Sequence record: PZ386960.1
DNA: 39,643 nucleotides
Reading direction: 5' to 3' (one strand)
From: a phage
The translations under genes were made by a program, and so were the position numbers. The first letter of the stretch is position 1. Every line of letters begins with the position of its first letter. The notes below the pieces were generated by a model. It was not told where the DNA came from and searched no databases. It saw only the letters and a list, made by a program, of their open reading frames with translations. Positions 1 through 39,201 of the stretch are shown here, in pieces.

Positions 1-1761
1 ATGGCACAATCCCAAGAAGCTAAGAACGCGCTAATCATTGCGCAACTTAAGGGTGACTTCGTGGCCTTCCTGTTCGTCTTATGGAAGGCTCTGAACTTAC
101 CTAAACCAACCAAGTGTCAGATTGATATGGCACGCACACTCGCTAACGGCGACCACAAGAAGTTTATCCTTCAGGCGTTCCGTGGTATCGGCAAGTCCTT
201 TATCACCTGTGCGTTCGTCGTGTGGGTCTTATGGCGCGACCCTCAACTTAAGGTTCTCATCGTGTCTGCCTCTAAGGAACGTGCGGATGCTAACTCCATC
301 TTCATCAAGAACATCATTGACCTGCTGCCGTTCCTTGCTGAGTTGAAACCTCGACCGGGACAGCGTGACTCCGTGATTAGCTTTGACGTAGGCTTGGCGA
401 AACCCGACCACTCACCTTCTGTGAAGTCTGTAGGTATTACTGGTCAGTTGACTGGTAGCCGTGCTGACATCATTATCGCAGATGACGTTGAGGTTCCCGG
501 TAATAGCTCTACTAGCTCCGCTCGTGAGAAGCTGTGGACATTGGTTACTGAGTTTGCTGCGTTGCTTAAGCCTCTTCCTACTAGCCGTGTTATCTACCTT
601 GGGACACCCCAAACCGAGATGACACTCTACAAGGAACTGGAAGACAACAAAGGGTACTCTACGGTAATCTGGCCTGCACAGTATCCACGCAACGACGCTG
701 AGGCTCTCTACTATGGCGACCGCTTGGCTCCTATGCTGAAGGCTGAGTACGATGAAGGCTTTGAGTTACTACGTGGTCAACCTACTGACCCTGTTCGATT
801 CGATATGGATGACCTCCGTGAACGTGAACTCGAATATGGTAAAGCTGGTTATACGTTACAGTTCATGCTCAACCCTAACCTGTCCGATTCTGAGAAGTAC
901 CCGCTGAGGCTCCGTGATGCCATTGTGTGCGCAGTGGACACTGAACGTGCCCCATTGTCCTACCAGTGGTTGCCGAACCGTCAGAACCGCAATGAGGAAC
1001 TTCCTAACGTGGGTCTGAAGGGTGACGACATTCACAGCTTCCATGTGTGTTCCTCTAAGACCGCTGAGTACCAGCAAAAGATTCTCGTCATTGACCCATC
1101 TGGTCGTGGTAAGGATGAAACGGGTTACGCAGTCCTCTACACCCTGAACGGCTACATCTACTTGATGGAAGTCGGTGGGTTCCGTGGTGGCTACGATGAC
1201 CCTACCCTAGAGAAGCTCGCTAAGAAGGCCAAGCAGTGGAAGGTACAGACGGTCGTACACGAGAGTAACTTCGGTGATGGTATGTTCGGTAAGGTATTCT
1301 CTCCGGTTCTCCTGAAGCACCACAAGTGTGCCTTAGAAGAGATTCGTGCTCGTGGCATGAAGGAGATGCGTATCTGCGATACTATCGAACCGTTGATGGG
1401 TGCACACCGCCTTATCATCCGTGACGAAGTAATCCGTGAGGACTACCAGACCGCTCGTGACCTCGATGGGAAACATGATGTTCGCTACAGTGCGTTCTAT
1501 CAGATGACCCGTATGACTCGTGAGAAGGGCGCTGTGGCACATGATGACCGACTTGATGCTATCGCATTGGGTATCGAGTTCCTTCGTGAAGGGATGCAGG
1601 TGGACTCTAAGGTAGGCGAAGAAGCCATGACCCTTGAGTTCCTTGAACACCACATGGAGAAACCTATCGTCGGTGGTGACATGGCTCGTGAGTTGGTGTC
1701 TGGAGGTGTGGACATCTACTATGAGGACGATGGCGATGGAGAGTGCTTCATTGAGTGGTAA
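1..1761 (+). CDS. gp19: Terminase large subunit (DNA maturase B)
   Basis: 586-aa ORF, same length as T7 gp19 and similar throughout as recalled ([26 protein letters not shown], GIGKS P-loop-like motif). The window 3' end supplies AAGGAG upstream if the sequence is circularised. Confidence 0.95.
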
Positions 1762-3446: not shown

Positions 3447-3902
3447 ATGATTCACACTAAAGAGCAAGCTAACGTTTTCTATGTACTGGTAAGCGCATTC
3501 CGTTCTAACCTGCACCACTTGGATAACCTTAGTCGTCATCGTCGCTTAGTTAACAGCTTACGCAATGCACCTCTGGAATACGGTAGCGTTGAGTCTACAG
3601 ACTTAACTGGCTGTTATCATGAGGCTGGCATGGAGTCACCCTCTGAAGAGCAAACCATTCGAGTACGCTGCACGACTAAAGCTCAAGCTATAAGTGTCGC
3701 ACGGTTGGCTTGTAACGACTATGAGCAAGACTGTGTACTGGTCTATAAGTCACAGACTCACAACGCTGCACTAATCTTTGCTGGTGGCTTGGACGGTTGG
3801 AAGACTGAGCGTATCGGGTCGTTCCAGATGGTCGCACCTGAAGTTGAACTGACAGGCAACTACACGGTCGATGAGTTCGGACGTGGCTGGAAGGTAATCT
3901 AA
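3447..3902 (+). CDS. gp0.3: S-adenosylmethionine-cleaving anti-restriction protein (T3-type SAMase / SAM lyase)
   Basis: 151 aa; MIHTKEQANVFYVLVSAFRSNL...GSVESTDLTGCY...CVLVYKSQTH...IDEFGRGW matches T3 0.3 as recalled; not Ocr-like. Confidence 0.9.
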   Translation: MIHTKEQANVFYVLVSAFRSNLHHLDNLSRHRRLVNSLRNAPLEYGSVESTDLTGCYHEAGMESPSEEQTIRVRCTTKAQAISVARLACNDYEQDCVLVYKSQTHNAALIFAGGLDGWKTERIGSFQMVAPEVELTGNYTVDEFGRGWKVI

Positions 3903-4102
3903 TGGTCATGGCACTCTTTGTAATCACTGTGTACGCTCTGATTGGGGCGTACTTCCTAAGAGACTTCCGCAAGGGTCTCAAGGTACACAAGGCTAACTTC
4001 TCGCACTTGAAGTATGGCTTTCTACCACGATTCACAGTCCGTGAACGTAACGGGCGCTTTAAGGCTAACAAGGTTGGTATCTTCTATGTTGCAACACACT
4101 GA
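3902..4102 (+). CDS. Hypothetical small membrane protein (gene 0.4-0.6 region)
   Basis: 66 aa; ATG overlaps the 0.3 stop (TAATG); N-terminal hydrophobic helix LFVITVYALIGAYFL; early-region position. Confidence 0.45.
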   Translation: MVMALFVITVYALIGAYFLRDFRKGLKVHKANFSHLKYGFLPRFTVRERNGRFKANKVGIFYVATH

Positions 4103-4250
4103 TAGTTTAACTAAGAAAGTTCTGTACACACTGGCATATGGTGCTACCAACAAGACTCTAATGCGGGCATTGCACCTGAAGCGGATACCCGCCAGAAAGG
4201 TAGCAAAGGCATGTAAAGAAGCGCGTTTAATCCTCAATTCTCTCTCTTAA
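4086..4250 (+). CDS. Hypothetical small basic protein
   Basis: First ATG (MLQHTDSL...) of the 4014..4250 frame that lies beyond most of the preceding ORF; no clear SD. Confidence 0.3.
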   Translation: MLQHTDSLTKKVLYTLAYGATNKTLMRALHLKRIPARKVAKACKEARLILNSLS

Positions 4251-4263
4251 AGGACACAATCTA

Positions 4264-5367
4264 ATGAACTACACCGACATTCAGGCACGTCTGGCAATCA
4301 TCGAGTCACTCCCGATTAGCGAACTGGACAAGCGCCAGCCTCTTCTGGTTGCACTGGCTGCTGACATCGTGAACGGTGAGACAAGCGATGGCAACGACAC
4401 AGACGGGTCGCAGGGTCTTGAGTATCAGGACTGGTGGCACACTTTGGGTGCACTGATGCGTGATGCAGGTTTCCGCATGCTGGGTAATGGTCACTTCAGT
4501 GCAGCCTACTCGCACGAAATGTTACCGGGTCGAGTCATCAAGGTTGGCTTTAAGAAAGAGGATTCAGGCGCTGCATACACTGCATTCTGTAGGATGCACC
4601 AAGGCCGAGCGGGTATCCCTAACGTCTATCACGTAGCACGTCATGCAGGTTGCTACACAGTGGTGCTCGATAGGCTTCATAGCTGTGACCGCTACGCTAA
4701 CGATGTTCACGCAAAGTATGCAAGTGCTGCGCAGGAGTTCATTGAGTGCACTGGAGGTGATGCCGATTGGTACGCACAGTATGTTAGCAAGGAGTTCATT
4801 GAGACATGCAAGATGATTCGTGAGTTCTTCCACGGTATTGCATCTTTCGACATGCACAGCGGGAACATTATGTTCGATGACAACGATGTCCCGTACATCA
4901 CTGACCCGGTTAGTTTCTCACATGACCGTGAACGTGAGGACGGTTTCCCTCTGGACCCTGATGCACTGATTGCCGAGGTCGAGGCGATAGCTAACGAGCG
5001 CATCATTGAACGTTGCCGCATCCGCAAGGCAAAGTGTGACCCTAACGGAACCTTTCAGGTTAACCGCAAGGCCGCAATGAAACGCCGCAAGCGCAACCGT
5101 AAGTTACGTGCTAAACATGCAGCGGAAGGAATGCAACAGTTTGTCAAAGAGCGTCTTGAGCGTAGAGCTATTGGCCGAAATGAACGCCGTGCTGAGATGT
5201 TCATGGGGTCTGGCTGGCACGACTTCTGGTTACGCAATGGTAACACACTGGTACGCAAGGTTGAACAAGTGAACGGCCTCAAGTGGCAACTAGGGGACCG
5301 CCTCGCAATACAGGCTGGTCGCCCTTTGAACATCGACAAGGTACTTGACGCTCAACTGATGGGCTGA
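4264..5367 (+). CDS. gp0.7: Ser/Thr protein kinase and host transcription shutoff protein
   Basis: 367 aa; ELDKRQ, GNGHFSAAYSH, VIKVGFKKEDSGAAYTAFCRM, GIASFDMHSGNIMF, YITDPVSFS match T7/T3 0.7. Confidence 0.93.
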   Translation: MNYTDIQARLAIIESLPISELDKRQPLLVALAADIVNGETSDGNDTDGSQGLEYQDWWHTLGALMRDAGFRMLGNGHFSAAYSHEMLPGRVIKVGFKKEDSGAAYTAFCRMHQGRAGIPNVYHVARHAGCYTVVLDRLHSCDRYANDVHAKYASAAQEFIECTGGDADWYAQYVSKEFIETCKMIREFFHGIASFDMHSGNIMFDDNDVPYITDPVSFSHDREREDGFPLDPDALIAEVEAIANERIIERCRIRKAKCDPNGTFQVNRKAAMKRRKRNRKLRAKHAAEGMQQFVKERLERRAIGRNERRAEMFMGSGWHDFWLRNGNTLVRKVEQVNGLKWQLGDRLAIQAGRPLNIDKVLDAQLMG

Positions 5368-5439: not shown

Positions 5440-8088
5440 ATGAACGTAATCAACGCACCAAAGAATGACTTCTCTGACATCGCTAACGCAATCCAGCCGT
5501 ACAACATTCTGGCTGACCATTACGGTGCACATCTGGCGGCTACGCAGTTACAGTTAGAACACGAAGCGCACACTGAGGGCGAGAAGCGTTTCCTTAAGGC
5601 AATGGAGCGTCAAATCAAAGCTGGTGAGTTCGGTGATAACGCAGTGGCTAAACCGCTCCTGTCATCCCTCGCACCGAAGTTCATCGAAGCGTGGAACACT
5701 TGGTTCACTGAAGTGGAAGCGAAGCGTGGCAAGCGTCCAGTGGCCTACAATCTGGTACAGAAGGTTGCACCTGAAGCTGCTGCATTCATCACACTGAAGG
5801 TCACACTGGCTTGCTTGACCAAAGAGGAATACACGAACCTTCAATCGGTCGCCACTAAGATTGGTCGCAGTATTGAGGATGAACTGCGTTTTGGTCGCAT
5901 CCGTGACGAAGAAGCGAAGCACTTTAAGAACCATGTACAGGAGGCACTGAACAAGCGCGTTGGTATCGTCTACAAGAAAGCATTCATGCAAGCCGTAGAG
6001 GGCAAGATGCTTGATGCTGGTCAACTGCAAACCAAGTGGACCACATGGACACCTGAAGAATCAATTCACGTTGGTGTGCGCATGTTGGAACTGCTCATTG
6101 GTTCTACTGGTCTCGTTGAGTTACACCGCCCGTTCGCTGGTAACGTTGAGAAGGATGGCGAGTACATCCAGTTAACCGAGCAATATGTTGACCTGCTGTC
6201 TAAACGTGCTGGTGCACTGGCTGCAATCGCTCCGATGTATCAACCTTGCGTGGTCCCTCCGAAGCCGTGGACTTCTCCGGTTGGTGGTGGCTATTGGGCT
6301 GCTGGTCGCAAGCCTCTCTCTCTGGTTCGCACTGGTAGCAAGAAGGGACTGGAACGTTACAACGATGTGTACATGCCTGAAGTTTACAAGGCGGTGAACA
6401 TCGCACAGAATACTCCTTGGAAGATTAACAAGAAGGTTCTGGCAGTGGTCAACGAGATTGTGAACTGGAAGCATTGCCCGGTTGAAGATATACCCGCTCT
6501 GGAACGTGGGGAACTCCCGGTCAAACCTGATGACATCGACACCAACGAGGCATCGCTCAAAGCGTGGAAGAAAGCGGCCTCCGCAATCTACCGCAAAGAG
6601 AAGGCACGAGTGTCACGCCGCATGAGCATGGAGTTCATGTTAGGACAAGCCAACAAGTTCGCGCAGTTCAAGGCTATCTGGTTCCCGATGAACATGGACT
6701 GGCGCGGTCGTGTGTACGCTGTGCCGATGTTTAACCCGCAAGGCAACGACATGACCAAAGGCTTGCTGACGCTCGCTAAAGGTAAACCAATCGGTGTCGA
6801 TGGGTACTACTGGCTGAAGATTCACGGTGCTAACACTGCTGGTGTGGACAAGGTGGACTTTGCAGAACGCATCAAGTTCATTGATGACAACCACGAGAAC
6901 ATCATGAGCGTTGCGGCTGACCCGATTGCTAACACTTGGTGGGCTGAACAAGACTCTCCGTTCTGCTTCCTCGCGTTCTGCTTTGAGTATGCGGGAGTCC
7001 AGCACCACGGGATGAACTACAACTGCTCTCTACCTCTGGCGTTCGATGGCTCTTGCTCCGGTATTCAGCACTTCTCCGCGATGCTCCGCGATGAGGTCGG
7101 TGGTCGTGCTGTTAACCTGCTACCAAGTAAGGAAGTACAGGACATCTACCGCATTGTTGCCGAACGTGTGAACGAGATGCTCCGCGAAGCGGTAATCAAC
7201 GGCACTGATAACGAAGTGGAAACCGTGACCAATAAAGACACCGGAGAAATCACTGAGAAGCTCAAGCTGGGAACGAAAGAGTTAGCTGGTCAGTGGCTGG
7301 CCTACGGTGTGACTCGCAAGGTCACTAAGCGTTCGGTCATGACGTTGGCTTACGGTTCCAAAGAGTACGGCTTCCGTGACCAAGTTCTTGAGGACACCAT
7401 TCAGCCAGCTATCGACGATGGCAAGGGCTTGATGTTCACTCAACCGAACCAAGCGGCTGGCTACATGGCTAAACTGATTTGGGAATCGGTAACGGTCACA
7501 GTTGTCGCAGCGGTTGAAGCGATGAACTGGTTGAAGTCTGCTGCTAAACTTCTGGCTGCTGAAGTCAAGGACAAGAAGACTAAAGAAGTCCTCCGCAAGC
7601 GTTGCGCAGTACATTGGGTTACTCCTGATGGCTTCCCGGTCTGGCAGGAATACAAGAAGCCAGTACAGACCCGCTTGAACCTGATGTTCTTAGGCCAGAT
7701 TCGTCTACAGCCTACCGTGAACACCAACAAGGATAGCGGTATTGATGCTCGTAAACAGGAGTCAGGCATCGCACCTAACTTTGTCCACTCAATGGATGGA
7801 AGCCACCTGAGAATGACTGTAGTGCGCTCCAATGAGGTCTACGGTGTGGAATCCTTCGCACTGATTCACGACTCCTTTGGCACTATCCCGGCTGATGCTG
7901 GCAACCTGTTTAAAGCAGTGCGTGAAACGATGGTCAACACTTACGAAGAGAACGATGTACTTGCAGACTTCTATGAGCAATTTGCTGACCAGTTGCACGA
8001 ATCACAGCTTGACAAGATGCCTGAGATGCCAGCTAAAGGTTCTCTGGACCTGCAAGAAATCCTTAAGTCAGACTTTGCGTTTGCCTAA
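5440..8088 (+). CDS. gp1: Single-subunit DNA-dependent RNA polymerase
   Basis: 882 aa (T7 RNAP 883); near-colinear with T7 RNAP, including the specificity loop QPTVNTNKDSGIDARKQ and the C-terminal FAFA. Confidence 0.98.
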   Translation: MNVINAPKNDFSDIANAIQPYNILADHYGAHLAATQLQLEHEAHTEGEKRFLKAMERQIKAGEFGDNAVAKPLLSSLAPKFIEAWNTWFTEVEAKRGKRPVAYNLVQKVAPEAAAFITLKVTLACLTKEEYTNLQSVATKIGRSIEDELRFGRIRDEEAKHFKNHVQEALNKRVGIVYKKAFMQAVEGKMLDAGQLQTKWTTWTPEESIHVGVRMLELLIGSTGLVELHRPFAGNVEKDGEYIQLTEQYVDLLSKRAGALAAIAPMYQPCVVPPKPWTSPVGGGYWAAGRKPLSLVRTGSKKGLERYNDVYMPEVYKAVNIAQNTPWKINKKVLAVVNEIVNWKHCPVEDIPALERGELPVKPDDIDTNEASLKAWKKAASAIYRKEKARVSRRMSMEFMLGQANKFAQFKAIWFPMNMDWRGRVYAVPMFNPQGNDMTKGLLTLAKGKPIGVDGYYWLKIHGANTAGVDKVDFAERIKFIDDNHENIMSVAADPIANTWWAEQDSPFCFLAFCFEYAGVQHHGMNYNCSLPLAFDGSCSGIQHFSAMLRDEVGGRAVNLLPSKEVQDIYRIVAERVNEMLREAVINGTDNEVETVTNKDTGEITEKLKLGTKELAGQWLAYGVTRKVTKRSVMTLAYGSKEYGFRDQVLEDTIQPAIDDGKGLMFTQPNQAAGYMAKLIWESVTVTVVAAVEAMNWLKSAAKLLAAEVKDKKTKEVLRKRCAVHWVTPDGFPVWQEYKKPVQTRLNLMFLGQIRLQPTVNTNKDSGIDARKQESGIAPNFVHSMDGSHLRMTVVRSNEVYGVESFALIHDSFGTIPADAGNLFKAVRETMVNTYEENDVLADFYEQFADQLHESQLDKMPEMPAKGSLDLQEILKSDFAFA

Positions 8089-35200: not shown

Positions 35201-36214
35201 CGCTCTCCGTTCACTAAGTTCCTCAATGGTACTTCCAACTACATTCTGGACATGGCCCGTCAAGGTGTCATGGGAGATGTGGTAACTCATGCCATTACTG
35301 GTAAGGGTGCCAACAAGTGGATTAAAGGCGACATGCTGAAATCTGCGAGTATCTCTAAGGAACAGTGGGAAGGCATTCAGAACCTAATCCGTGAGAACGT
35401 CACTCAAGGTGCTGATGGCAAGTACACCTTCAAGGACAAGCGTAAGCTGGCTAATGACCAGCGAGCTATGGACCTGTGGCGACTGGCTGATAAGGTAGCT
35501 GATGAAACCATGCTGAGACCACACAAGGTGTCCTTACAGGATTCCCATGCGTTTGGTGCTGCTGCTAAGTTGGTCCTTCAGTTCAAGTCTTTCGTAATCA
35601 AGTCGATGAACTCTAAGTTTATCCGCTCCGGTAACGAAGCCTTTAAGAACCATAGGGCTATGGACATGGCGCTGACCTACGCAATCTCTGGAGGCATCGC
35701 TGGTTCCTACTACGTGGCACAGGCCCACTTGAAGGCCGCTGGTCTACCTAAAGAGCAACAGAAGGACTACTTGAAGAAAGCCCTTGACCCTAAGATGATT
35801 GCCTATGCTGCTGCGTCCCGAAGTTCACACATTGGGTCGCCTCTGAGTATCGCAAACTTCGCTATGGGTGCTGCTGGTTACGACCAAGGTCTCATGGTCC
35901 GCTCTACGATTCTCCCGAAGGGTGAGGACAAGCGGGAACGGAACAAGTCGGTAACTTCTCGTGACATGAGTGACTCCATTATGGGTGCATTAGGTGAGCA
36001 GATTCCTGCTCTTGGATTCGCCGGGGCAACCTTTGCCGCTGGTCGAAATGCTTATGGTGTCCTTACGGCTCCCAATAAAGTTACCGAGCGTGAGATGATG
36101 ACTGGCCTAATGAATGCTCATCGTGAGATGGTTCCGAATGACCCTATCACTCAACAGATGCTCATTAAATTCTATGAGGCTAATGGTGTTCACCTTAAGT
36201 CTGACAAGAAGTAA
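32267..36214 (+). CDS. gp16: Internal virion protein D with N-terminal lytic transglycosylase domain
   Basis: 1315 aa; GTG start after TAGGAGG; (M)DKYNP...GVSYGLLRKVGWVESRF...GVMQFTKATGQAYGL matches T7 gp16 (MDKYDKN...). Confidence 0.95.
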   Translation: MDKYNPNEPHEYDALFQQAADTHGVSYGLLRKVGWVESRFKPTAQSPTGPRGVMQFTKATGQAYGLQSDEDFNDPAKSIDAGARYLADLVKKYNGDELKAALAYNQGEGRNGKPQLEAYDSGNFAGIGDEGRNYLRSLLDVAKSPKSGDIEAFGGITPKGKGIPFDTAMSGIGKKGKVTTELPESHSMSFQGKEQAAPNQPFGKDYWEAKGTTLDEANERSTFFGFGNAAEAELSNSTLGVAFRAGKRDNGFDVVTDVLQPTRFNSHIWSPEELERIRNEVKNPAYMNVVLGGSSENLDELIKLANENYELDAKAADAGLGAKLSAGIIGAGVDPLTYVPIAGTAAKGFKLVNKALIVGAQAGALNVASEGLRTSVAGGDAHYAEAALAGMLFAGGLTAIADGVAAGLRKSGAEQIENPFAAAQMRFEARETARNTGGHDASRMPPSEDRVFSQHNGVEYSPLETEPGAVVLRDGSIISDTNLANPMTAKEFAEVDPERAAWGLPMRGLSEIGLRTLRSEHAEIRGLAKDLVRSPTGMESGSHGKFGATASDIKERLHSTNQRTYNDLYDAMKEAMADPEWSVGMFKRGAQGARQEIYRRAAIAIERPELQANLTKAERKVMDIMKEHFDLKREMMENPAMFGNKATSIFPNSRHKGTYVPHVYSREAKQLYSQALGGSDGLQEAIAASWMTSYRSRPEVKARVDEHLAETLGIDPKAVTEEMVMKHASDKAYGIAKTDEFNSSSVIDDNIEGLVGIENNSFLEARNLFDSDMPVTLPNGQQFSVNDLRDFDMKHVMPAYDRRVDGDIAIMGGTGKTTAELKDSILALDKKSEGKGTMKGEVEALKDTVKILTGRARRNQDTMGDTMVRALSDMSFFTKNAYMGLQNLTEISGLLAKGNTRAMLHGIPALRDLAFRNKPVSGKELKELHSMVFGKEFDDLIRPTRQDIIQRLRESTDTPDVAAKVVGTVKHTTQELAARSPFTKFLNGTSNYILDMARQGVMGDVVTHAITGKGANKWIKGDMLKSASISKEQWEGIQNLIRENVTQGADGKYTFKDKRKLANDQRAMDLWRLADKVADETMLRPHKVSLQDSHAFGAAAKLVLQFKSFVIKSMNSKFIRSGNEAFKNHRAMDMALTYAISGGIAGSYYVAQAHLKAAGLPKEQQKDYLKKALDPKMIAYAAASRSSHIGSPLSIANFAMGAAGYDQGLMVRSTILPKGEDKRERNKSVTSRDMSDSIMGALGEQIPALGFAGATFAAGRNAYGVLTAPNKVTEREMMTGLMNAHREMVPNDPITQQMLIKFYEANGVHLKSDKK

Positions 36215-36215
36215 T

Positions 36216-36238
36216 CAATACGACTCACTATTGGGAAG
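36216..36238 (+). promoter_or_regulatory. Phage RNAP promoter (phi17-like)
   Basis: CAATACGACTCACTATT-GGGAAGG followed by the hairpin GGGAAGGCTCACACAGCTTCCC. Confidence 0.85.
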
Positions 36239-36283
36239 GCTCACACAGCTTCCCTTTATTATACCCAACTAAGGAGGTACATT

Positions 36284-38056
36284 ATGGCTCTCAAGATTCG
36301 TACCGTAATGACTTATCCGCTAACAGGTGCTGTGGACTTTGCAATCACCTTTGAATACTTAGCGCGTAAGTTCGTGACGGTAACTCTAATTGGTAAAGAC
36401 CGTAAGGAACTTGTTCTCAATCAGGACTATCGGTTCACCACTAAGACACAAATAACTACAACCCGCACATGGACTGCTGCTGACGGATATGACTCTATTG
36501 AGATTCGTAGATACACCTCTGCGACTGACCGTCTGGTTGACTTTGCTGATGGCTCAATCCTTCGTGCGTATGACCTAAACATCGCACAGATTCAAACGCT
36601 TCACGTTGCCGAAGAAGCACGAGACCTCACTGCGGATACCATTGGTGTAAACAATGACGGGCACTTGGATGCTCGTGGTCGCCGTATTGTGAATGTTGCC
36701 AACCCTGTAGAAGACGGGGATGCTGTTAACTTAAGGTCACTCAAGGTGTGGAATGACTCTGCACTTAACTCTGCCAACCGAGCAAAAGAATCCGCAGAAG
36801 AAGCGAAGAGACAATCAGATTGGGCTGGGCGTATGCGAAATGAGGCAGAACAGTTCAAGAACGAGGCTAACACTCACCGAGGCGTTGCTGAGTCTGCTAA
36901 AGACCAAGCCATTGCTGCTCGTGATGTGGCTAACTCCGCTAAAGACCAAGCGTCCAATAGCCGTAGTGAGTCCTTGCGTTTCGCTGAGGAGTCCAACCAG
37001 TACATGGGGTGGGCGAAGAAGTGGGCTGTTAACCCGGTCGATGTAGTCATTCAGGATGGTGAGTTCTCTGCGAAGCACTGGCAGCACTACTCAAAGGTTG
37101 AAGCTGACCGCTCTAAGAATGAAGCTGACCGAGCAACTAACGAGGCCAACAAGTTAGGCAACATTAACGCTCTTGCTGCTGCAATCGAGAAGGTTGATGG
37201 AATACGTGTGTTCTGGAAAGGTGAGCAACATTGGGATGGACGATTGTATATGACCTCAAGTGGTTTTGACTGTGGACAGTATCAACAGTTCTTCGGTGGT
37301 GTACCTAACCGTTACTCTGTCATGGAATGGGGCGACAAGGATGGATGGCATTTGTATTCTGAGAGACAAACTGAAGGAGGTGCTCCAACACTAAGCCTGC
37401 GCGGCCACATGATTGCTGGGGGTGATATTAGATCTTCTGGAAATCAATATACCAACAACATGTTTGTACAAGACCGGGAACAATACTGGCCGGGACGAGG
37501 TGCATTCGCTAATCAGTTCAATGACAAGGATGCTCCATTTGCGAAGACTGGTCAGTTCCACGCCCCCAATGGTTACGGAGAGTACTACCCAATCGTAAAA
37601 GCATTCGTGTCAACTATTGGACACGGCTATGGCACAGTTGCTACGTTTGGTATGTTGACATCTGGCAGTGGTCGTTTTGCTAATGCGTGTATTCACGTAA
37701 TTGGAGACAACGGAACCAACGGTCTCTGGCAGTTTGACCCCAACACTGGAGAGTTCCTGTCACGCGGTGACGTTAAGGTAGGTGATGGCTGTACCATCTA
37801 CCAGAATGGGGATGTTTGGGGGACCGTTTGGGGGAGTCGACCACTCACACAGTGGTTAGGAGACCAGACTGTTAACCACATCGCTATGGGAGGTCGTAAT
37901 GATTCTCCTGTGTGGAATGCCTACGGTATTGGTGATGGAGATGGCAAGGTTATCACTGGTGTAGTTAATGGTAACGCTGATGGCGCCATTGACACAATTC
38001 AGTGGCGTGTTATGCAGTATGTTCGAAACAACGGACAGCGCTTTAATATCTACTAA
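36284..38056 (+). CDS. gp17: Tail fibre protein, mosaic: T7-like N-terminal and shaft region with a replaced distal tip
   Basis: 590 aa; residues 1 to about 350 match T7/T3 gp17 (FEYLARKF, ILRAYDLNIAQIQTLHVAEEARDL, GFDCGQYQQFFGGV.NRYSVMEWGD); the last ~230 aa are unrelated to the T7 tip as recalled. Confidence 0.92.
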   Translation: MALKIRTVMTYPLTGAVDFAITFEYLARKFVTVTLIGKDRKELVLNQDYRFTTKTQITTTRTWTAADGYDSIEIRRYTSATDRLVDFADGSILRAYDLNIAQIQTLHVAEEARDLTADTIGVNNDGHLDARGRRIVNVANPVEDGDAVNLRSLKVWNDSALNSANRAKESAEEAKRQSDWAGRMRNEAEQFKNEANTHRGVAESAKDQAIAARDVANSAKDQASNSRSESLRFAEESNQYMGWAKKWAVNPVDVVIQDGEFSAKHWQHYSKVEADRSKNEADRATNEANKLGNINALAAAIEKVDGIRVFWKGEQHWDGRLYMTSSGFDCGQYQQFFGGVPNRYSVMEWGDKDGWHLYSERQTEGGAPTLSLRGHMIAGGDIRSSGNQYTNNMFVQDREQYWPGRGAFANQFNDKDAPFAKTGQFHAPNGYGEYYPIVKAFVSTIGHGYGTVATFGMLTSGSGRFANACIHVIGDNGTNGLWQFDPNTGEFLSRGDVKVGDGCTIYQNGDVWGTVWGSRPLTQWLGDQTVNHIAMGGRNDSPVWNAYGIGDGDGKVITGVVNGNADGAIDTIQWRVMQYVRNNGQRFNIY

Positions 38057-38074
38057 TATAAAGGAGGAAACACT

Positions 38075-38599
38075 ATGAGGGCTTTACGTCACTATAAGAA
38101 CTTCGTAAAGTATACCCCTCGTAAAACCAAAGAGAATGCTGACCTGCTAGAGCATGGGGTTGGCTTCTCTATGGACGAGAACGGTAACGACTGGTACGAA
38201 CTTCGTGAGACCTTTGAGAAGGACACATGGAAGCTGGTGTACGCTAAGGATGGTACTGTCATTCAATGCGAGAAGGACGTACAGGAATTAGCTGTGCAAG
38301 GCTCTGCTGGTGTCATTGAATTGGAGAACATTCCGAAAGAGTACTCACGAGACAACATGGTACAGTGGTGGTGGGATGGAGAGAAGCTAGACTGGAACCC
38401 TCGTTACTTTGAGAACCAGAAGGCTCGCTTAATTGCACAGGCATCTACGAAGATTGACCAGTATGCTGACTTTATTGAGTTAGGCGAAGAGGGTCTTGAG
38501 GATATTCTCAAGGCATGGCGAAAATATCGACTGGCGGTGTTTAAAGTGGACTTAAGTGTTCTCCCTTTCTACGACTGGCCTGAGAAGCCGGAAGCGTAA
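38075..38599 (+). CDS. Tail fibre assembly chaperone (Tfa family)
   Basis: 174 aa; AAGGAGG SD; C-terminus LKAWRKYRLAVFKVDLSVLPFYDWPEKP parallels lambda Tfa [28 protein letters not shown]; no equivalent gene in T7. Confidence 0.8.
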   Translation: MRALRHYKNFVKYTPRKTKENADLLEHGVGFSMDENGNDWYELRETFEKDTWKLVYAKDGTVIQCEKDVQELAVQGSAGVIELENIPKEYSRDNMVQWWWDGEKLDWNPRYFENQKARLIAQASTKIDQYADFIELGEEGLEDILKAWRKYRLAVFKVDLSVLPFYDWPEKPEA

Positions 38600-38637
38600 A
38601 CTATTAGGCCACGGATGGCTGACACTAGGAGGACATA

Positions 38638-38847
38638 ATGTTGTCATTGGATTTTAACAACGAGGTAGTGAAGGCTGCTCCGATTGTAGGGACAGGGGTT
38701 GCCGATGGCGCTGCCAGACTGTTCTTCGGCCTGTCACTTAACGAATGGTTTTATGTAGCCGCAATTGCCTACACAGTGGCTCAAATTGGTGCCAAGGTAG
38801 TCGATGTGGTTATCAAATGGAAGAAGGAGGGTAGAGATGTCGGATAA
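38638..38847 (+). CDS. gp17.5: Holin (class II)
   Basis: 69 aa; MLSLDFNNE..KAAPIVGTGVAD..ARLFFGLSLNEWFYVAAIAYTV.QIGAKVVD is near-identical to T7 gp17.5. Confidence 0.93.
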   Translation: MLSLDFNNEVVKAAPIVGTGVADGAARLFFGLSLNEWFYVAAIAYTVAQIGAKVVDVVIKWKKEGRDVG

Positions 38848-39103
38848 ATCTTTGATTCAATTCCTTGAGATGTTGGATACTGAGATGGCTCAACGTATGC
38901 TGAAAGACCTTCAGGATGACGAGAAGCGTACGCCTCAACTATACAACGCAATCGGGAAACTGTTAGAACGCCACAAGTTCCAAGTCTCCAAGTTACAGCC
39001 AGACCGTAACATCCTTGGTGGACTTGCTGATGGACTTCAGGAGTATCAGAACCTCGTAGGTGACGATGGTCTCACTGAAGATGAGAAGTACACGCTGAAC
39101 TGA
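38837..39103 (+). CDS. gp18: Terminase small subunit (DNA maturase A)
   Basis: 88 aa from MSDKSLIQFLEMLDTEMAQRML; AAGGAGG SD; matches T7 gp18. Confidence 0.92.
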   Translation: MSDKSLIQFLEMLDTEMAQRMLKDLQDDEKRTPQLYNAIGKLLERHKFQVSKLQPDRNILGGLADGLQEYQNLVGDDGLTEDEKYTLN

Positions 39104-39201
39104 TGGAATAACTCAAGGCCACTACATCTAGTGGTCTTTATGATATTTCAACACAACTCACGGTAACGCTACGTGAAATCTGAGAAATGGGGAGGGTAGT
39201 T

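Follow-up and report, generated by a model that had tools for sequence, protein, structure and literature searches.

A chimeric tail fibre and a Mu gpU-type assembly protein as a probable host-recognition module of a Kvp1-like Berlinvirus

Why does a T7-family phage carry an additional gene between its tail fibre gene and its holin, and where does the end of the preceding fibre come from? The question is raised by sequence record PZ386960.1, an apparently complete, circularly permuted T7-family genome that was analysed as a single window over its full length (positions 1-39643; 39,643 nucleotides), beginning with the ATG start codon of gene 19, which encodes the large terminase (open reading frame (ORF) 1..1761), and terminating within gene 18.5. 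The phage is a Kvp1-like Berlinvirus: its late region shares 92.8% nucleotide identity with Kvp1, its early and middle regions share 91-94% with ErnstBeyeler, PhiV-1 and SPLA4, and the phage collection contains no match to it above about 95%. Gene 17 (36284..38056, plus strand, 590 amino acids) is followed, after a gap of 18 nucleotides, by a co-oriented ORF of 174 amino acids (38075..38599, plus strand; gene 17.2) and then by the holin gene (38638..38847; Pfam Phage_holin_2_2, E 3e-31) and the small terminase subunit. A preliminary description made from the sequence had placed a mosaic fibre and an inserted chaperone gene at 36284-38599, between gene 17 and the holin, in exact agreement with the ORF list, and had stated that T7 lacks such a gene; in T7 the holin does directly follow gene 17. 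We conclude that the locus is very probably a host-recognition module formed by genes 17 and 17.2, in which a chimeric fibre with a Mu/P1/P2-type tip is paired with a Mu gpU-type tail fibre assembly protein (Tfa). The combination is already known in T7-like phages, as gene 17.2 of Kvp1 has been annotated since 2008 as "putative phage tail fiber assembly protein" and the gene pair was described in 2025 for Escherichia phage EmilieLinder (Bas103; PMC11990801). Added here are the exact edges of the cassette (37358 and 38600-38605), the finding that Tfa is strictly coupled to the final ~80 residues of the fibre and not to the whole tip, and a conservation of Tfa that, among phages from seven host genera, lies far above that of the tip body.

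The assignment of the 174-residue product, gp17.2, is supported by profile, orthologue-group and structure-linked searches.

38075..38599, plus strand: gene 17.2, tail fibre assembly protein (Tfa, Mu gpU type), 174 amino acids; assigned through Pfam, PHROG and phmmer

The Caudo_TAP search proposed in the preliminary description was run and gave 43.6 bits against PF02413 (E 4e-11), above the gathering cut-off of 22.1 bits, with residues 45-173 aligned to profile positions 4-131 of 131, while PHROG 136 ("tail fiber assembly protein") was matched at E 1e-38. The protein also matched the crystallised Mu gpU (5YVQ_B, 175 amino acids) over its full length (residues 5-173 against 2-175, phmmer, E 4e-13), and it aligns with Mu U, Mu U' and Tongde U over both halves, so that the earlier reading of this ORF as a Tfa holds. 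In published Tfa proteins a variable N-terminal beta domain binds the fibre and a conserved C-terminal helical domain trimerises. Compared with its Kvp1 orthologue, gp17.2 differs by 19 synonymous and 2 non-synonymous changes, a ratio of non-synonymous to synonymous divergence (pN/pS) of 0.03, and along gp17 the ratio runs from 0.03 to 0.23; both ORFs are genuine genes, kept under purifying selection. Since fibres of the T7 type need no separate chaperone to fold, the ORF might instead be a decaying or functionless remnant beside a fibre that folds alone, a proposal to which the altered Tfa C-terminus in the UNVERIFIED record of phage ESh2, where a frameshift is suggested, would lend some support. 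We find this scarcely credible, however, as the frame is intact and is preceded by a strong ribosome-binding site, and the pN/pS of 0.03, together with the presence of the terminal fibre domain alongside this Tfa in 15 of 15 records, led to rejection of the ORF both as a chance frame and as a remnant.

The fibre protein itself, gp17, is built from segments of different affinity, listed here in the order in which they are encoded.

36284..36748, plus strand: residues 1-155, T7-type tail-attachment domain (Pfam PF03906 Phage_T7_tail, E 1e-50)
36749..37153, plus strand: residues 156-290, shaft, delimited by multiple alignment
37154..37357, plus strand: residues 291-358, conserved T7-type segment (GFDCGQYQQFFGG...RYSVMEWGD), the last T7-homologous stretch
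37391..37843, plus strand: residues ~370-520, tip body of the Mu/P1/P2/lambdoid fibre type, from BLASTP
37856..38053, plus strand: residues ~525-590, terminal domain ending RNxGQRFNIY and resembling the end of Mu S', from alignment and phmmer

The N-terminal domain matched the T7 gp17 structures 7BOZ and 8E4G (phmmer) and is 73% identical to T7 and 98% identical to both Kvp1 and ErnstBeyeler. The shaft, probably a coiled-coil, is shared with Kvp1 (98%), ErnstBeyeler (79%) and SPLA4 (74%) and is 21% identical to T7, after which the 291-358 segment returns to 70% amino acid identity with T7 (76.5% in the nucleotide island 37175-37357); in ErnstBeyeler, Bas103 and Yanou this segment is substituted by one of another type. 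Taken by block, identity to T7 is thus 73% (residues 1-150), 21% (151-290), 70% (291-360) and 9-17% (after 361). BLASTP aligned residues 1-380 of gp17 with 1-359 of T7 gp17 at 53% identity and nothing further on, phmmer against the T7 gp17 structures reached residues 1-394, and beyond ~380-394 there is no match to the T7-type C-terminal pyramid and tip domains apart from the linker motif discussed below. T7 gp17 (NP_042005) accordingly shares the N-terminal domain, segment 291-358 and this linker, and differs in having pyramid and tip domains of its own and no chaperone gene. The C-terminal structure of T7 gp17 is 4A0T. The claim that distal gp17 is not T7-like is therefore upheld, with T7 homology ending at codon 358 in nucleotides and at about codon 380 in protein.

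The replacement for the T7-type tip comes from the fibres of other phage groups. With BLASTP, residues 404-578 matched the Sv segment of Muvirus vB_YpM_Tongde, which adjoins a Hin-type invertase, at 37% identity over 175 amino acids (E 9e-28), and weaker matches were to the PCSE1 tail protein (E 1e-18), S of P1-like SJ46 (E 8e-15) and the gpH-like protein of P2-like Fels-2 (E 3e-14). Compared with the variable fibre ends of Mu-like, P1-like and P2-like myoviruses, residues 404-586 show 29-37% identity, and in the Tongde, PCSE1, SJ46 and Fels-2 matches a Tfa gene lies directly 3' of the fibre. A HMMER search with the tip against 1.84 billion representative proteins returned 147 clusters, among which the tip resolves into two independently occurring parts, a body (~403-530) and a terminal domain (~520-590), the body being found on N-termini of T7 type, P2 gpH type (PF12571), lambdoid Stf type (PF08400) and a type like T4 gp34/37. 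The suggestion of an origin in a siphovirus or myovirus fibre lineage was right in this respect, the closest relatives being Mu-like, with P2 gpH- and Stf-type N-termini also represented. The tip body is the presumed receptor-binding region. It is also the part of gp17 most diverged from Kvp1: residues 361-510 (37364-37813) are 80-86% identical in amino acids, with pS 0.39-0.62, pN 0.09-0.12 and a pN/pS of about 0.2, as against 0.03-0.09 in the flanks, which points either to an allele history of its own or to selection, relaxed or diversifying, on the receptor-binding part. In one of the HMMER matches, P0007 (643 amino acids), a region resembling the tip body (231-372) and a Caudo_TAP domain (512-635) lie on one polypeptide; this is either a true fusion of fibre and chaperone or an error of gene calling across the border between a fibre gene and a Tfa gene.

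The terminal domain behaves differently from the body. Over the last ~80 residues, identity is 61-98% in all 9 compared Tfa-carrying T7-like fibres and merely 12-18% in T7, ErnstBeyeler and PhiV-1. The end of gp17 matched residues 426-480 of Mu S', the G(-) fibre (8JU3; phmmer, E 3e-6; 45% identity over 53 amino acids), and the domain is related to Mu S' and to Mu-like Sv segments, and not to Mu S.

How the foreign portion is set into the T7-like gene is indicated by the points at which nucleotide homology to related phages stops and resumes in PZ386960.1.

PhiV-1 (Berlinvirus, no Tfa): homology ceases at 36681 and returns at 38606
ErnstBeyeler (no Tfa): homology ceases at 37189 and returns at 38606
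T7: homology ceases at 36727, reappears as an island at 37175-37357 and returns at 38605

The 3' edge of the cassette is sharp and falls at 38600-38605, a few bases past the Tfa stop codon, and relative to T7 the 5' edge lies at codon 358 (position 37358). The single recombination point that had been proposed near codon 350 was thus close to one real junction (codon 358 in nucleotides, ~380 in protein), but there is not one junction alone; several are nested within gp17, at about codons 133-155, 300, 358-380 and 505-525, in addition to the 3' edge. The motif DGNIxGxxWGGxLxxWL lies at 37790-37860 (gp17 ~503-527; residues 438-460 of T7 gp17) and is kept in all compared T7-like fibres including T7, and partly in Mu-, P1- and P2-like fibres, with an hhalign probability of 71% for the gp17 linker motif against T7. 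Because it coincides with the point at which terminal domains are exchanged, this motif is likely to be a recombination linker. The exchange can be followed between ErnstBeyeler on the one side and Bas103 and Yanou on the other: the latter two have a fibre middle of the ErnstBeyeler type, as judged from alignment blocks and not from computed pairwise identities, and the fibre of ErnstBeyeler ends in a T7-type tip without Tfa, whereas those of Bas103 and Yanou end in a Mu S'-type domain followed by Tfa. This looks like a natural domain swap. Because Bas103 and Yanou combine the ErnstBeyeler-type middle with the shared end and Tfa, the unit strictly tied to Tfa is the last ~80 fibre residues and not the whole 230-residue tip.

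A further step, which we put forward as a tentative possibility with the balance somewhat against it, is that the last ~70-80 fibre residues and gene 17.2 constitute a portable "folding nucleus" that could be grafted onto any T7-like fibre at the DGNIxGxxWGG linker, where it may take the place of the chaperone-independent T7 tip domain. Were this so, receptor specificity would reside in the upstream body and the Tfa-linked end would be a generic assembly device, giving a design rule for retargeting phages of the T7 family that extends the known modularity of fibres and introduces no new principle.

In order to place the cassette among known phages, its distribution was surveyed across 50,697 phage records. 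This Tfa and the terminal fibre domain were found in an identical set of 15 records, a co-occurrence of 15/15, representing 12 phages (Kvp1, SPLA4, ESh2, ESh6, ESh10, LL2, Seera, 10164-302, 10164RH, Yanou, PGX1 and EmilieLinder). All but one of the 12 are placed in Berlinvirus, Teetrevirus or Teseptimavirus, the genus of EmilieLinder being taken from its paper (PMC11990801); the PGX1 record is without taxonomy. The carriers were isolated on hosts from seven enterobacterial genera (Kluyvera, Salmonella, Escherichia, Shigella, Serratia, Leclercia and Cedecea). Their Tfas form a tight clade with at least 79.9% identity, and the next best match is a Mu-like Tfa at 31%. The order gene 16, phi17, gene 17, 17.2, holin, gene 18 is collinear between PZ386960.1 (33300-39151) and Kvp1 at 89.9% identity and is repeated in SPLA4, LL2, ESh10, 10164-302, Seera, Yanou and PGX1, and in Bas103 gene 16, the fibre and Tfa are present up to the end of the record. 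The GenBank annotations of LL2, SPLA4, Yanou and 10164-302 likewise name a tail fibre assembly protein. In the UNVERIFIED record of Shigella phage ESh2 (locus 3772-4377) the Tfa ORF is 201 amino acids long with an unrelated C-terminus (…TLTRRTRAVFRF), which suggests a frameshift or a sequencing error near the 3' end.

These data bear directly on the age of the cassette. As temperate Mu-, P1- and P2-like phages, which likewise infect enterobacteria, carry the nearest non-podoviral relatives of the tip and the Tfa, a recent and direct capture by this phage from a host prophage or a myovirus could be envisaged. It is nevertheless very improbable: Kvp1 and SPLA4 carry the cassette at an identical position and with identical edges, the 90.7% nucleotide identity of the cassette to Kvp1 is near the 92.8% of the surrounding late region, the myoviral relatives reach only 27-37% protein identity, a nucleotide search of 5,426 complete E. 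coli genomes returned zero matches and hence no donor prophage, and the GC content (0.477 against 0.487 for the genome) carries no signal of foreign DNA. Because its divergence from Kvp1 is that of its surroundings, its GC content is ordinary and no E. coli match exists, the cassette is inherited and not freshly captured; it is old in the subfamily, and PZ386960.1 received it vertically along with Kvp1 and SPLA4. The preliminary description had proposed horizontal acquisition of a tip-plus-chaperone cassette; of this, the likeness to a foreign lineage stands, and novelty and recency do not.

The same survey informs the role of gp17.2. One possibility is that the protein does more than assist folding: in the virion it would stay attached to the fibre tip and contribute to the surface that binds the receptor, in the manner of the adhesin cap gp38 of T2 and S16. 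The Mu fibre and its Tfa were crystallised as one complex (PDB 5YVQ), the EmilieLinder fibre is predicted to form a 3:3 hexamer with Tfa (PMC11990801), and the N-domain of Tfa is the fibre-binding part, all of which would suit such a cap. A specificity determinant should vary with the host, however, and Tfa is 80-99% identical across the carriers from seven host genera whereas the tip body is 3-86% identical across the same phages; in addition, gel analysis of Kvp1 virions names no such band, although small proteins were not specifically sought (PMC2579914). We therefore consider the cap unlikely. That Tfa is so much more conserved than the tip body across hosts argues that gp17.2 is an assembly factor rather than a specificity determinant.

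As an assembly factor in the proposed host-recognition module, gp17.2 would act on a fibre that, to judge from homology, is docked on the tail by its T7-type N-terminal domain, after which come the shaft, the short T7-type segment, the Mu/P1/P2-type tip from ~370-400 and the ~70-residue Mu S'-like terminal domain. By extension from Mu Tfa, the variable N-terminal half of gp17.2 would bind the terminal domain of the nascent fibre, and its conserved C-terminal helices would trimerise, set the register and initiate folding of the trimeric tip, which would proceed from its C-terminus. The module would thus replace precisely the T7-type tip domain, which needs no such helper. The tip body would then decide which surface glycan is bound, probably a sugar of the lipopolysaccharide core or O-antigen; lipopolysaccharide is the usual receptor of T7-like phages. 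In evolutionary terms, the tip-plus-Tfa cassette probably entered the T7 subfamily once, long ago, and has probably since been exchanged among Berlinvirus, Teetrevirus and Teseptimavirus through recombination at conserved linkers.

Several points limit this account. Both the binding of gp17.2 to gp17 and the need for gp17.2 are argued by analogy with Mu, and the terminal 90 residues of gp17 gave no profile match to Mu S, the G(+) fibre that was crystallised with gpU. AlphaFold2 models were of low confidence: gp17 residues 361-590, modelled from a 3-sequence alignment (2 homologues found), reached a predicted local distance difference test score (pLDDT) of 31.7, and gp17.2, from a 4-sequence alignment (3 homologues found), a pLDDT of 40.0 with strands within residues 11-107 and helices at 109-131 and 138-156, an order in keeping with the published Tfa architecture, although a model of such low confidence carries no weight as evidence. 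A single acquisition, in turn, is suggested by the tight Tfa clade and the gaps in identity around it, and not by trees. If the account is correct, the module explains how a receptor-binding tip drawn from the Mu/P2/P1 pool of fibres can serve a phage of the T7 family, and it shows which two genes must be transferred as a pair in engineering such fibres for new hosts.

Comparison with known systems separates what is shared from what is particular to this locus. The nearest counterpart is Kvp1 (FJ194439 / NC_011534), in which genes 17 and 17.2 have the same position and edges, with 90.7% nucleotide identity over 2316 bases and 93.4% (gp17) and 98.9% (gp17.2) amino acid identity; the divergence of tip body 361-510 is a main difference. 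The Kvp1 paper (Lingohr et al. 2008, PMC2579914) lists region 17-17.2 among those dissimilar from phage Berlin and notes that several such genes are absent from Berlin, and it does not discuss the chaperone; no literature linking Kvp1 with tail fibre assembly was found. EmilieLinder, a Teseptimavirus, likewise has a separate Mu-like Tfa (Gp60) directly after its fibre gene (Gp59; PMC11990801, S7 Fig), with 82.7% identity in Tfa and 61% in the last ~80 fibre residues, but the middle of its fibre (291-510) belongs to the ErnstBeyeler type and is only 8-24% identical to that of PZ386960.1. EmilieLinder depends on the O16 O-antigen (PMC11990801).

Mu S'/U' and S/U (8JU3, 5YVQ) and Tongde Sv/U share the gene order of a fibre end followed by Tfa, at 27-37% identity, and differ in that their cassettes lie in an invertible G segment with an invertase and a second, inverted cassette, and in that the Mu fibre is mounted on a myovirus baseplate and gp17 on a T7 tail. 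An invertase and an inverted second cassette were seen in Mu, Tongde, Fels-2 and SJ46; in PZ386960.1 neither was detected at the locus among the ORFs or in the domain scan, and the holin at 38638 comes directly after gene 17.2. The P2 gpH/gpG, P1 S/U and lambda Stf/Tfa systems all have a Caudo_TAP chaperone gene directly 3' of the fibre gene, and the same tip body occurs on P2 gpH-type and lambdoid Stf-type N-termini; the relationship is distant (about 29-31% identity in the tip). These fibre cassettes of P2, P1 and lambda are the classical case of tail fibre gene exchange between unrelated phages. For the Tfas of Fels-2 and SJ46, relatedness to gp17.2 is confined to the C-terminal half, with 27% identity there and 9% in the N-terminal part.

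Finally, the expression signals and the flanks of the locus were read in the sequence.

36216..36240, plus strand: promoter phi17 (CAATACGACTCACTATTGGGAAG), a phage-RNA-polymerase promoter for genes 17 and 17.2
38061..38067, plus strand: Shine-Dalgarno sequence AAGGAGG of gene 17.2, with a 7-nucleotide spacer to the ATG at 38075
38606..38637, plus strand: gene 17/17.5 intergenic element (GGCCACGGATGGCTGACACTAGGAGGACA), which includes the holin ribosome-binding site and marks the 3' edge of the cassette

The phi17 promoter lies ~44-45 nucleotides 5' of gene 17 and is the counterpart of the annotated "Kvp1 promoter phi17". A scan for sigma-70-like promoters across 36100-38900 found none, and the interval between genes 17 and 17.2 holds no plus-strand terminators, the terminator-like hairpins being on the minus strand only and at chance level. 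As phi17 is the sole promoter detected in the region, genes 17 and 17.2 are likely co-transcribed. The pre-holin element at 38606-38637 is kept across T7, T3-like and Berlin-like phages and contains a small inverted repeat, CCA CGGA TGG. Kvp1 additionally carries gene 18.2 (336 nucleotides, conserved hypothetical, between genes 18 and 18.5), which is missing from PZ386960.1: positions 39152-39166 stand here against 5871-6200 of the Kvp1 locus, and at this point PZ386960.1 is collinear with PhiV-1.

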